Positions 31,420 through 35,105 are shown, numbered from the stretch's first letter. The stretch: 64,000 nt of DNA from Promethearchaeati archaeon (GCA_013166775.1 JABLTJ010000001.1:96001-160000), one strand, 5' to 3'. The notes: a model not told the origin generated them from the sequence alone. A program made the numbers and translations.

Positions 31420-32727
31420 TTATTCAGCTCCGAATGATCTCCAGTTTTTCACCAGCCACTCATATATTTTCATATACTTCTCATCTGCTACTGCTTTAAC
31501 CAAGGTTTGCAACAGTTCTTTTTCTATTTTTTCCAGATACATCATCAGCAGATTGTTATTATTAGGTAGCATCCAGGCTAGCGTCGTTTCTAAAGTTAAT
31601 TTGTCTATCTTACGGTATGAACATGCACCCATTCTTAATTGCTTTCCTCCGTATTTCACTATTCCTTCTTTGAACACGAAATTCTCCGCTGCTTCCTTTC
31701 CTATATTTCTAAATTTAAGATTATGGCCTAAACTTTCTTTTACCCATTTAAAGAATTCATCATAGTTTCTCTTGTATTCATTCAGCAAAATTAAGTATAG
31801 TAATAATCTTTCTCTTATCTCGATATCTGGCACCCCTGAAAGAACATTTAATTTTATTGATGTCTCTTTTGCTAATACTTTTCCGACAAATCCTCTGTCA
31901 TATCCTCTCCCTATCAATTGTTCTTTCCATGCTTTTACTTGTTTTTTTCCGTATTCTTTAGATGAAAACGCATTTAAGAAGAATTTATTCCTATCTGCTC
32001 TATATCCAAAATGCAGCGGATTAGTCATCAGATACTGGTCAAAATTCATCTTTTCTGTTGCTTTACATTGTTTGAAGAAATCGTCCCAATTAAATTCTAT
32101 TATTACTTTTTTTCCTTCTATCTCGAACATATTATAGCTCTCATCAAAGAACACTATTGTTTTTGGACTATCTAAATCTTGTCTGAACATAAGACCATCT
32201 GGGAACCTAAAGGGATAATCCAATTTTCTTGCTAGATTCCATCCTGCACCTATATTTGCTTCAAATAATTTTTCTAATGCCGTTGGATCTTTTATTTTAA
32301 TTTCTCCTAGATGGAAATTAAACAAAGTTTTAGAAAGATTCTTCACTTCTGTTGTTGCTTTTGCTTTTTGTACCATTTCTTGCAACCTTCCTTTAAACGG
32401 TAGTTTCCATAAATGCACTGCATCAGATGTATGTGTACAATATTTCTCTCCATAGCTTTTTAAAAATTTATTTAAGTTTCCAATATCTGAAGTTGCTTCT
32501 ATTCATGTTGTCATTGTTACAATTGCGAACACATCTGCTATTTCTGGGAAGAATGGTAGTACAGGTGAATCCAAACAGACAAATCCCTTGAATATCTCTG
32601 TTTGTATTTCTGACATCTCCTTACTAACAATTCTAGATCCTTCTTCATTTGACTCGTAATTGTATCTCTTCCATTTCTTTGAAGTTTCTTTTTTAAAAGG
32701 ATAATCTAATTTCTTCGTACATAATAC
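31420..32727 (-). pseudogene. Unknown-family gene (possible AEP/PriX-like primase), interrupted by an in-frame TGA and probably 5'-truncated
   Basis: The frame of ORF 31420-32418 continues upstream through one TGA (32503-32505) to TAA at 32728-32730; paralogous fragments at 33184-33378 and 34648-34902. Confidence 0.6.
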
Positions 32728-32758
32728 TTATATTTACTTATTTCATTGTTATAAAGCT

Positions 32759-33190
32759 ATGAGTTTTTTCAAGAAGATATTGGGTATTGAACCTTTTAAG
32801 GTAAGGCTTTCTTTTACACAATCAGTTGAAGTACCTCTAACAGATAAAGAAGATGCTAAATTCAAAGATTATGCATTTCTATTCTTTAAACAATTTGATA
32901 TCAGAGGACTATTAAAATATATTTCAAGATTATACAAAATTAAGGATTCCACACAGTTAATAGGGACATCTATTGATTTAGGTAGAAAGAATCTTTCCAT
33001 TATCCTAAGAAATATAGAAGACAAGTTTGTTACTGATTCTAGATTAGATAAGAAGGTTGAAAGGAAGGCAAAATTAAATTCATTTCTGTTTTTGGGTGGT
33101 TCTTCCAGCTGGAGGGGGGGAATGACAAGAGAAATTAGATATTCAAAGTCATTTCGTTATAGTTTTGGTGGGAAAATAGGAATCCCCTGA
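32759..33190 (+). CDS. Hypothetical protein in the accessory island (C-terminus possibly chimeric)
   Basis: 143 aa ORF; its stop overlaps the left edge of the paralogue remnant at 33184. Confidence 0.4.
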   Translation: MSFFKKILGIEPFKVRLSFTQSVEVPLTDKEDAKFKDYAFLFFKQFDIRGLLKYISRLYKIKDSTQLIGTSIDLGRKNLSIILRNIEDKFVTDSRLDKKVERKAKLNSFLFLGGSSSWRGGMTREIRYSKSFRYSFGGKIGIP

Positions 33191-33378
33191 AACCATATCT
33201 AACTTTATGTAATTGTCTTTTGCTAAAATTTTACTGCTAATCATTTATCATATCCTCTCCCTATCAATAATTCTTTCCAGATCTCTACTTGCTTTTTTCC
33301 AAATTCTTTACTTGAAAATGCATTCAAGAAGTAATAATCCCTGTCTTGCCTAAAACCTTTATAGAAGGGCTTAAACTG
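33184..33378 (-). pseudogene. Internal remnant of a paralogue of the 31420-32727 gene
   Basis: Translates GFRQDRDYYFLNAFSSKEFGKKQVEIWKELLIGRGYDK*, then after a frameshift SKILAKDNYIKLDMVSG; compare GYRADRNKFFLNAFSSKEYGKKQVKAWKEQLIGRGYDRGFVGKVLAKETSIKLNVLSG. Confidence 0.85.
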
Positions 33379-33457
33379 CAAAAAAACTGCAATTTTTCTC
33401 GAAATCTATTTAAAAACTACCTTTAGAGTATCATGGTTAACTACTCTTCAGTCTGCC

Positions 33458-34021
33458 TTGAAGAAGTGGCTAACATCAATTAGGAGAGGTAAGGAAATGA
33501 ACAAAGAGCTGTCTAGTCTTGAGACTGAATCATGCTTACATAGGTCTGAGTTTACCACTCACGTAGAAGAGAGGATGATGGTCTGCATACTCTTAATAGA
33601 TTTGAGAGGATACAAGAAGAGCACGCACCAGAATAAGGAAGAGTATCCTCATGGTCTATTCTCTCTAACTTTACGTTTACACAGATTCGGGAATAACTCC
33701 CCTGTGAAAGTTTTCTTATATGATTCAGATAAGAGATTTGCTACTTCCTTTCTTCTTCAAATCCTCGATTATTTTACTTGGTTTGCAGATTTCAATTGTT
33801 CAGATTTAGAAACTGGCACCTATTACGTTAGAGTATATCTGTCATATTTAGATCAAGATTACAGTTCTCCTTATTCTAGAATTATGATTTTCAATTCCTC
33901 TGGAATTGAGGAAACTACTTCTCAATTCCTTTTCTATTCTTCAGTTTTTTTCATGATTATTTTCTTCTATTTCAAAAAAAATAAACAAAAACTAAATACT
34001 CATAAAAAAATAAATACGTGA
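33458..34021 (+). pseudogene. Probable chimeric ORF: unrelated 5' piece joined to the C-terminus of a membrane-anchored surface protein
   Basis: Composition changes at ~33640; C-terminal Ig-like strand LETGTYYVRV, then a TM segment and KKNKQK. Confidence 0.4.
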
Positions 34022-34596
34022 TTCATATGTCTAAAAAAACAATCAAACAAATTTCAATTATCTTGTCAGTATTTTTACTGATTTTCAGTCCTCTTTCTGC
34101 TCTTGCAGCAAAAAGCAGTCTTCCCATACAGTATGAAGAAGGTTTAGAAGTTGTCCTTACTGCTAAAGTTCGTTCTAAGTTTGTTTCCGAAGATTTCAAT
34201 ATTACTCTTACTCTTGCCTTTACCAACAAACCTGATAATGTTGTTAAATTATTTAATATTGAAATCATAGTTCGTCTCATAGATGTCCATTCTCAAGAAT
34301 TAACCAGAAAAACTGTTGCTTTTAATAGTCTCTATCTCAATTCTGAGCAGAGTAAAACTACTACTGTTCCTTATGATAGTAGTTGGGGAGATGTTGGTCT
34401 CCAGCTTAAAGTTCTCCTTATTGCAGATAGAAGCGGTTCATTTTCTAGTTTACATCTTGAAACTCATTGGCTTGATTTCTTTATTCTCAAAACTGGCTCT
34501 TTTGTTGTTAACTACTTCTGGATCTTTATCATAATAGGCTTAGTTGTAATCTTTGGAGGAGCCTTGACACTCAAATTTACAGTATTTAGGAAGTGA
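34018..34596 (+). CDS. Secreted/membrane protein (signal peptide, beta-rich domain, C-terminal TM)
   Basis: KKTIKQISIILSVFLLIFSPLSALAA signal; C-terminal FWIFIIIGLVVIFGG; codons overwhelmingly pyrimidine-ending. Confidence 0.7.
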   Translation: MIHMSKKTIKQISIILSVFLLIFSPLSALAAKSSLPIQYEEGLEVVLTAKVRSKFVSEDFNITLTLAFTNKPDNVVKLFNIEIIVRLIDVHSQELTRKTVAFNSLYLNSEQSKTTTVPYDSSWGDVGLQLKVLLIADRSGSFSSLHLETHWLDFFILKTGSFVVNYFWIFIIIGLVVIFGGALTLKFTVFRK

Positions 34597-34647
34597 AAAA
34601 AAGAAAAAATAAAGAAGAATAAGATAGAGTTAATTTACAAGTTTTCT

Positions 34648-34902
34648 TTATTCTCCTTTGAATGATTTCCAGTTTTTCACCAGCCATTCATATATCTTCA
34701 TATACTTTTCATCTGCTACACTTTTCACCAATGTATGTAGTAAATCCTCTTCTATTTTTTGCAAATACTTCATAAGTAGATTATTATTACTTGGTAGTAA
34801 CCAAGCTAATGAAGGTTCTATGCTTTTCTCTTGTAGGTTCTGAAATGAGCACACCCCTATTCTCAGTTGTTTTCCTCCATATTCCACCGTTCCCCCTTCT
34901 TT
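34648..34902 (-). pseudogene. 5'-truncated C-terminal remnant of a paralogue of the 31420-32727 gene
   Basis: 53 of the last 77 aa identical by manual alignment (YGGKQLR...VADEKYMKIYEWLVKNW.SF..E*). Confidence 0.88.
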
Positions 34903-35105
34903 AAGGTCACCATATAGTTTTATGAGCGATTTTTTTTGTCGTTGAAAAGGCACGTCCTAGTTCTCTAATGAAAGTGAAAGAAGAGGATCAAGAGTAAAGA
35001 TAGAAATGGTTTCCCAATATCGTACAAAGTAAATAGAGGTGAGTTTACAATAGCGATTATAGGATTAAGAAAGATTTAATTAATAATCATAATAAAATCT
35101 TTTTT

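Follow-up and report, generated by a model that had tools for sequence, protein, structure and literature searches.

We analysed a stretch of 64,000 nucleotides (nt) from a Promethearchaeati archaeon, one of the Asgard archaea. This stretch, the window, is positions 96001-160000 of contig C1 in the assembly studied here (GCA_013166775.1, called G000), which comprises 3.85 Mb in 115 contigs, is 88.7% complete and has a GC content of about 33%. Just upstream of a Rab-like GTPase gene, the window contains a block of about 4.6 kb that holds three remnants of one protein family. A sequence was counted as belonging to this family if it had a significant hit to a profile (A1/A2) of the family's C-terminal module, which has 487 positions and ends in a ...W(I/L)xxNW motif; all three window copies have such a hit. 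The block, its family copies and its two flanks are as follows, with positions counted from the first letter of the window.

30734-31303, minus strand: Rab-like GTPase gene, conserved; left flank of the insertion
31383 to about 36015: genome-specific insertion of about 4.6 kb, between the region upstream of Rab and the 3′ end of mem180
31420-32727, minus strand: long family copy, 436 codons; profile positions 83-486 at about 31432-32628 (profile E 5e-124)
about 33178-33393, minus strand: internal remnant of a second family copy; profile positions about 281-338 (profile E 1e-3)
34648-34953, minus strand: C-terminal remnant of a third family copy; profile positions 402-486 (profile E 1e-28), open frame of 101 codons
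36066-36608, minus strand: mem180, a conserved membrane protein gene; right flank of the insertion

The long copy is truncated at its 5′ end compared with intact members of the family. It is interrupted by a single in-frame TGA (32505-32503) and has a possible ATG at 32616; its longest clean open reading frame (ORF) encodes 332 amino acids (aa; 31420-32418), and 37 nt separate its stop codon from the insertion's left junction. The internal remnant contains four stops. It is 49% identical to residues 128-197 of the 332-aa ORF and, across 164 nt, 76.8% identical to the long copy at the nucleotide level. The last 81 residues of the C-terminal remnant are 68% identical to the end of the long copy, in line with the 53 of 77 identical residues given in the original prediction for this locus. 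That prediction had described three co-oriented, minus-strand remnants of a single family, and translation of the minus strand reproduced all three. The matches clearly exceed chance (tblastn E 7e-31 and 2e-13; profile E 1e-28 and 1e-3). A fourth copy, with a tail of 122 aa, lies on another contig, C53 (18422-18799, minus strand; profile E 2e-44), about 170 nt from the contig's end. It has 72% aa identity to the long copy and 82% to the C-terminal remnant.

The copies are only distantly related to one another. Synonymous divergence (dS) and the ratio of nonsynonymous to synonymous divergence (dN/dS), here and below as pairwise Nei-Gojobori estimates, are 1.58 and 0.12 for the long copy and the C-terminal remnant, 0.95 and 0.20 for the long copy and the C53 copy, 1.52 and 0.08 for the C-terminal remnant and the C53 copy, and 1.06 and 0.25 for the long copy and the internal remnant. 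By comparison, six genes flanking the block show a dS of 0.19-0.84 relative to their orthologues in G019, the closest relative of G000. Therefore, the copies parted as functional genes, at least as early as the split between G000 and G019. They are old paralogues, shaped by purifying selection as they diverged, rather than products of a recent local duplication, and their divergence predates the insertion. With dN/dS at 0.08-0.25 and dS at 0.95-1.58, the claim that the differences are mostly synonymous or conservative, as expected of once-functional homologues with no recent duplication, holds.

An insertion specific to one genome

The surroundings of the block are conserved. For the synteny survey we used the KaiC-like neighbour of Rab, which is present as a single copy in 29 of 31 genomes of the taxonomic family, and compared 12 loci. 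The order TIM-Roadblock-KaiC-like-cc273-Rab-(mem180)-nth-p769 is kept in ten relatives belonging to two genera, where the distance from Rab to mem180 or nth is 154-282 nt; in the window it is 4762 nt. In two closed genomes of a third genus, Rab and nth are rearranged. None of the 12 relatives has a family gene at the Rab site.

The spacer between Rab and nth in G019 aligns to 31206-31382 of the window and resumes from about 36016, where it covers the rest of the spacer and the 3′ end of mem180. Only 17 unmatched nucleotides occur in G019 where the block sits in the window. Given that the alignment continues on both sides of the block, the native arrangement of Rab and mem180 has been kept, and G019 represents the empty site. 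The Rab gene itself is 99.5% identical to its G019 orthologue at the amino acid level. We saw no mosaic or recombination tract within it, and third-position identity to G019 is even along the gene.

The original prediction regarded this site as a serial insertion hotspot. All 12 relatives compared lack an insertion at the Rab site, so a hotspot for integration is unsupported, and nothing indicates several integrations over a single composite block.

The neighbouring mem180 gene has a patchy distribution. It is present in G000, G001, G005 and G016, and absent from G012, G024, G013, G008 and G025. In G019 it is reduced to a 76-nt 3′ stump, and G006 has only a weak trace around its 3′ end. This pattern of presence and loss indicates that the spacer between Rab and nth is unstable in the genus.

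Between and beside the family copies, the insertion contains the following features.

32759-33190, plus strand: 143-aa ORF, possibly not a gene
33458-34021, plus strand: ORF187, 187 aa, homologous to other sequences only in its C-terminal part (33665-34009)
34018-34596, plus strand: ORF192, 192 aa, with a signal-like N-terminus and a C-terminal hydrophobic anchor followed by a basic tail
34954-36015: right end of the insertion, AT-rich (28-30% GC)
35106-35303 and 35590-35778: two small ORFs at the right end, for which no homologues were found

The 143-aa ORF has no credible Pfam match (the best, DUF4470 at E 0.25, is below threshold), no PHROG match and no paralogue in the genome. The plus-strand ORFs had been described as unrelated, cargo-like genes, a description that does not hold for ORF187. 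About 115 residues at its C-terminal end match the end of a 345-aa anchored protein in G013 with 33-35% identity. The gene for the G013 protein is divergent from, and beside, an intact 520-aa family gene, and the internal remnant and ORF187 have the same arrangement. Judging from this resemblance, the internal remnant and ORF187 look like a collapsed divergent gene pair of the G013 kind in which both 5′ halves were lost. ORF192 and its paralogues on C75 (42% identity), C22 (frameshifted) and C61 are members of a small anchored-protein family found repeatedly in variable regions. No Rfam family was found within 30000-37500.

The family and its longest members

The family has no match in Pfam, PHROGs or PADLOC. 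When these resources were applied to the family, the intervening ORFs and a zinc-ribbon partner protein discussed below, nothing except a DZR domain was detected. A word-indexed protein search with the family returned the query alone, and a search of its profile against the sequences in the Protein Data Bank (PDB) returned nothing. An exhaustive HMMER search of 1.84 billion representative sequences yielded four proteins, two of which are G000's own fragments. In a profile search of 399 genomes of the phylum, 18 of the 30 genomes from a single taxonomic family carried it, and a lone weak match fell elsewhere. When an alignment of the G000-type tail was used for pattern scans, neither IMG/VR nor the JGI metagenome contigs gave a confirmed relative. 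On these searches, the family is an orphan that is restricted to one taxonomic family of Asgard archaea.

The module forms the C-terminal end of proteins of widely differing length, with open frames from 518 to 4635 aa. The forms that bear it include a giant of 4628 aa, proteins of about 900 aa, module-only proteins of 520 aa and stand-alone tails of 120-145 aa. The members of about 900 aa align to the last ~790 residues of the giants, and among larger members the homology reaches over about the last 800 aa. The family is therefore a nested series of forms shortened from the 5′ side, all of which keep the 3′ end. A related observation concerns an intact member of 967 aa in the closed genome G027 (C1:2067978-2070878). 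Its counterpart in the closed sister genome G030 (C1:2085220-2086643) keeps only residues 1-286 and 922-967, a further internal deletion that spared the tail.

The giant is encoded on contig C38 of G025. The gene order there is a ParA-like ATPase gene, a 249-aa gene, a gene of about 2072 aa, the 4628-aa gene ending with the module, and a convergent zinc-ribbon gene. The ATPase is ParA/MinD-like and has 296 aa (AAA_31/CbiA/ParA match, E 5e-26). An orthologous giant occurs in G007, where it is split across two contigs. Members of 560-974 aa with the module are present in two closed genomes of a sister genus. When the G007 and G025 giants, the members of about 900 aa and other members were compared by tblastn with the insertion and with the ends of C53 and C75, the module alone was found.

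This layout resembles that of the Asgard-specific aloposons of Candidatus Heimdallarchaeum (Otus/Ephialtes), which consist of tandem giant genes encoding 3000-6000 aa, with a MinD/ParA-like ATPase gene upstream and a tRNA downstream; the legend of Extended Data Fig. 7 in the same work describes a region of truncated, fragmented giant-gene sequences (Wu et al. 2022, PMC8813620). At G025:C38, tandem giants likewise follow a ParA gene, and the family module is the tail of the 4628-aa protein, a likeness in layout. The loci also differ in several respects. The first G025 giant, of about 2072 aa, falls under the published size range, and in the 17 kb that follow the G025 giants ARAGORN detected no tRNA. 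Most members of the family, at 520-970 aa, are not giants, and all that the window has of them is tails of 58-436 codons; ParA and giant bodies are absent. The G025 locus has the ParA feature of aloposons in full and the tandem-giant feature in part; the window has neither.

Predicted structures do not assign the module to a known fold. AlphaFold models of the 506-aa module of G013 (predicted local distance difference test, pLDDT, 74) and of the 332-aa window ORF (predicted template modelling score, pTM, 0.71) both predict a mixed alpha/beta module with a helical subdomain at its end. For both models, Foldseek against the PDB gave no match with E below 0.05, and a shape search of the ESM Atlas gave template modelling (TM) scores of at most 0.23. 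A wide VIA-align search with both gave best Z values of 4.7 and 5.6, nothing above noise, the latter being a 44-residue helical hairpin. A feature search of the ESM Atlas gave no usable match. Recurrent low-scoring matches (Z 3.4-4.4) paired the same helical stretch (residues 325-390 of model m5b05e3710a0e and 155-220 of model md1762dbf7825) with the core-binding domain of tyrosine recombinases, including lambda Int, Xer and the N-terminal domains of phage integrases; these lie below noise and were not used.

Two enzymatic functions were considered. For the first, an archaeo-eukaryotic primase, there was no Pfam match at E up to 1, and no primase occurs among the structural matches of either model. 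The alignment of the family shows a semi-conserved PDG...FFD...(D/E)GK pattern, similar to PD...D...(D/E)xK, in which G013 has N in place of D and G007 has PS in place of PD. Neither Foldseek nor VIA-align matched either model to a PD-(D/E)xK nuclease.

A double-zinc-ribbon gene (330-485 aa) abuts the 3′ end of a family gene or stump at six loci in five genomes.

Zinc-ribbon-adjoined loci: G013, G010:C20, G016:C91, G016:C155, G029:C8 and G025:C38; two in tandem and four convergent
Positions of the zinc-ribbon genes: L016 8623-9882, L047 7059-8057, L048 8777-9778, L051 2-1099, L006 2-1126 and L131 965-2422

In G010, G016 and G029 it is family stumps that adjoin this gene, one sign that decay is widespread in the family; the deletion in G030 is another. 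A small GTPase gene follows it in G013 and G010. The window insertion contains no zinc-ribbon homologue; the nearest is 24 kb before the window start, and the two homologues in G000 (C1:71024-72097 and C72:928-1704) are both away from family pieces.

Truncated tails also recur. Five of them, in four genomes (L038, L039, L031, L041 and L040), have open frames of 133-172 aa and start at profile positions 328-365, four of the five at 350-365, just ahead of a conserved ...EYxxNWDEF helix. The tails in G010, G022 and G012 each have a full-length counterpart in a sister genome, whose tail they match at 84-89% identity, and the tail at G016:C91 has 66% identity with the G013 protein. These tails may all be recent truncations, or a functional small protein made up of the last ~130 residues may have been kept. 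The selection on three of these tails, described below, suggests a possible stand-alone domain of about 130 aa.

Co-oriented stacks of family pieces are found at G016:C91 and G010:C116 as well as in the window. Stacking is therefore a trait of the family and not of the Rab site. Stacked, co-oriented ends that are truncated at the 5′ side and share their 3′ part, often with a small partner gene adjacent, are reminiscent of polymorphic toxin loci (Rhs, CdiA-CT/CdiI). By contrast with those loci, here it is the tail that is conserved and the N-termini that vary, the partner gene is often convergent and does not occur in the window, and no toxin fold was recognised. Moreover, the identities of head and tail are concordant: those upstream and downstream of the recurrent truncation point co-vary in every pair (means 0.30 and 0.27), so cassette swapping of the polymorphic-toxin type is unsupported.

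Insertions at other loci

A family member of about 900 aa lies between the genes for fumarase beta and alpha in seven genomes (G001, G008, G012, G025, G009, G002 and G004), with both flanks visible in four and one flank in three. After this member comes a displaced and divergent duplicate of the beta gene's last 41-59 codons, which still has an open frame and abuts the alpha gene. The 3′ end of the family gene is 68 nt from the duplicated target. In G001 (L054, G001:C3, 7506-12076; also L023-L029), the displaced beta copy resembles the G000 FumC more closely than the intact end of the G001 gene does.

The corresponding site in G000 (L128, G000:C76, 3986-8990) is arranged as FumC-FumN1, two reverse-strand genes for surface proteins, a 127-nt piece of the FumC 3′ end, and FumN2. 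The surface proteins have 415 and 297 aa, and a caspase-like His/Cys pattern occurs in the shorter one. At the nucleotide level, FumN1 and FumN2 are 88.5% identical, with a dS of 0.58 and a dN/dS of 0.05.

On contig C116 of G010 (L057, 6630-11806), an insertion of about 4.2 kb contains two co-oriented family pieces and two genes for anchored or secreted surface proteins. It has a complete alpha/beta-hydrolase gene on one flank and, on the other, a divergent duplicate of the first ~77 codons of that gene (66% aa identity, dS 1.1). The duplicate scores 180, compared with a shuffle maximum of 33.

G000 carries a second insertion of its own, upstream of another Rab gene, Rab2. A contig gap falls inside this insertion, which comprises C53:16832-18961 (L059) and C75:220216-220550 (L129). 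It contains a leucine-rich repeat (LRR) gene (C53 17603-18310), for which no orthologue was found in the genus, the 122-aa family tail described above (C53 18422-18790) and a 59-nt piece similar to ORF187. Rab2 is conserved (orthologues 86-98% identical) and shares an operon with two other genes. Upstream of Rab2, the DNA of G006 runs into the sequence that ends contig C75 in G000. A spacer piece of about 87 nt, present once in G006, flanks the gap in G000 on either side (C53 17471-17558 and C75 about 220216-220302), the two copies being about 75% alike. Rab and Rab2 are each other's closest relatives (62% aa identity) among about 25 Rab-like loci in the 3.85 Mb. A motif common to their upstream regions did not exceed chance (score 38, shuffle maximum 42).

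These loci modify two expectations of the original prediction. Homologues are not always next to the window's Rab gene, given that other genomes have them at fumarase, hydrolase and zinc-ribbon gene sites. A site preference finds some support within G000, where the C53 copy belongs to a genome-specific insertion upstream of the closest Rab paralogue, but the sites in other genomes are varied.

The flanking duplicates are divergent and under purifying selection, a combination that would fit integration, through homology, of DNA from a related donor, and would fit staggered-cut transposition less well. Such duplicates, as seen for the hydrolase and FumN, are expected in homology-facilitated or Campbell-type integration if one copy is derived from the donor. 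This is a general process and not a family of elements, and it leaves the two Rab-side insertions unexplained. The position of a displaced fumarase beta 3′ copy after the ~900-aa members, in the manner of attL and attR, resembles elements with a tyrosine integrase that target tRNA genes or the 3′ ends of other genes and duplicate the 3′ end of their target. These differ from the loci described here in several ways: no integrase was found, the inserted unit is essentially a single family gene, the duplicates at other loci are a promoter piece or the 5′ part of a gene, and the window insertion is without a duplicate.

Origin and meaning of the block

We think it probable that the block consists of degenerate island DNA that was inserted in this lineage, had its source in the giant-tail family and companion surface-protein genes, and was later eroded. 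Foreign or translocated island DNA would have been brought in by recombination just upstream of Rab. On the model of the divergent target duplicates at other loci, its entry could have been homology-facilitated or Campbell-like. Deletions would then have eroded the block, removing 5′ parts and intervening genes. The DNA may have arrived as one composite block or in a few steps. Given their TGA, multiple stops and truncations, the window copies are most likely non-functional debris. The suggestion that mobile elements integrated next to Rab is thereby upheld as far as a lineage-specific insertion upstream of Rab, and mobile-element associations elsewhere, are concerned. Its other part fared less well: plasmid or virus relatives were not found, and the analogy with elements that exploit dif or origin regions is unsupported.

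Several observations weigh against the island reading. The window insertion has no flanking direct or attachment (att)-like repeat above shuffle level and no flanking duplicate, neither Pfam nor PHROGs found an integrase (including Phage_integrase) or other recombinase in it, and ARAGORN found no tRNA in the 64-kb window, on C53 or at the C75 end. With no such mark at this site, the proposed mode of insertion draws solely on what is seen at other loci. In the two closed sister-genus genomes, nothing matches the G025 giant over its first 3000 aa. The genomes of the two closest relatives are 76-81% complete, and, while the assembled G000 has no intact family member, one could be unassembled at 88.7% completeness. 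In addition, the truncated tails of G010, G022 and G012 have a dN/dS of 0.11-0.24, compared with a full-length orthologue baseline of 0.11-0.28, and thus show no relaxation of selection, and the C-terminal remnant and the C53 copy retain open frames with a dN/dS of 0.08. The term debris may therefore be wrong for short tails at least.

A different explanation, which we regard as possible but unlikely, is that mobile elements ending in the family gene integrate site-specifically upstream of Rab-type genes, displacing older, decaying copies. Both family-bearing loci of G000 are indeed insertions confined to this lineage, each immediately upstream of one of the two most similar Rab paralogues, and small GTPase genes adjoin family loci in G013 and G010 too. 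The 3′ end of the family gene is 37 nt from the junction in the window and 68 nt at the fumarase site, as if it marked the end of an element. Also, the copy closest to Rab is the least decayed, and the copies are older than the insertion. However, the Rab site is empty in all 12 relatives, the regions upstream of Rab and Rab2 share no motif beyond chance, and the block has no flanking repeat and, by Pfam, PHROGs and structural searches, no recognisable recombinase. Other genomes carry their insertions at unrelated sites, and IMG/VR and JGI metagenome contigs provided no relatives. If the tails are instead functional, their last 125-145 residues might be an autonomous domain, for example a toxin-like effector with the zinc-ribbon protein as partner or immunity protein, and the window a store of cassettes. 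Recurrent start positions, open frames, a dN/dS no higher than the full-length baseline, the zinc-ribbon gene at the family 3′ end in six loci of five genomes and the semi-conserved PD...D...(D/E)xK-like pattern speak for this idea. We nonetheless judge it quite improbable. A conserved tail with variable N-termini is the reverse of polymorphic toxins, and cassette swapping is not supported. The zinc-ribbon gene is as often convergent as tandem and absent beside the window pieces, where the C-terminal remnant begins at position 402, within the domain. The candidate catalytic residues vary, being N or S in some members, and a nuclease fold was not detected.

Two further explanations concern the site and the assembly. 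The cluster could be ancestral, having arisen by local tandem duplication and been lost precisely in all other lineages. The spacer is dynamic, in that mem180 is missing, or survives as a 76-nt stump, in several relatives, but this account needs at least five independent, near-precise deletions in lineages that keep the native Rab-mem180 or Rab-nth spacing, and the divergence among the copies is greater than that between species. We consider it very improbable. Even less credible is a mis-assembly, in which strain or paralogue sequences were joined into a chimera in this metagenome-assembled genome. Unitig breaks at 31450-31479, 33453-33482 and 34230-34259 do mark branch points of the assembly graph. 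On the other hand, overlapping Logan contigs from three samples of a single marine-sediment study, one of which may itself be the source of the G000 assembly, span 30.7-36.7 kb and bridge both junctions at even depth, so the block is not an assembly chimera. No joint representing the empty site was present among the Logan contigs covering this stretch, and no RNA sample was listed as containing it.

Beyond the island reading, a more ambitious proposal is that the module is the working end of a new, integrase-less class of Asgard cassettes. These cassettes would be characterised by long divergent duplications of host genes, nested 5′-truncated copies (4628 > 905 > 520 > about 400 > 140 aa), a selected domain of ~130 residues that works with the zinc-ribbon protein, and targeting of, or a functional link to, Rab paralogues. 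We offer this as a speculation that is unlikely to be correct.

Little is known about mobile elements in Asgard archaea. Reportedly, aloposons were named in 2022 without a mechanism, and their giant proteins are said to have no assigned function. Aloposons and fragmentary giant-gene sequences have already been published. What is new here is the tail module linking giants to genes of 520-970 aa and 120-145 aa, its confinement to a single taxonomic family, the divergent copies of target sequence that surround family insertions, and the two Rab-side insertions in a single genome. Family tails are scattered as truncated copies across many genomes of this taxonomic family, and concrete junctions are available in the empty and filled Rab sites and in the divergent target duplications at the fumarase, hydrolase and Rab2 loci. 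The window may represent the ordinary decay of imported island DNA. Otherwise, if the short tails are functional or the association with Rab is real, they would provide a handle on how aloposon-like elements move and on the role of the giants.

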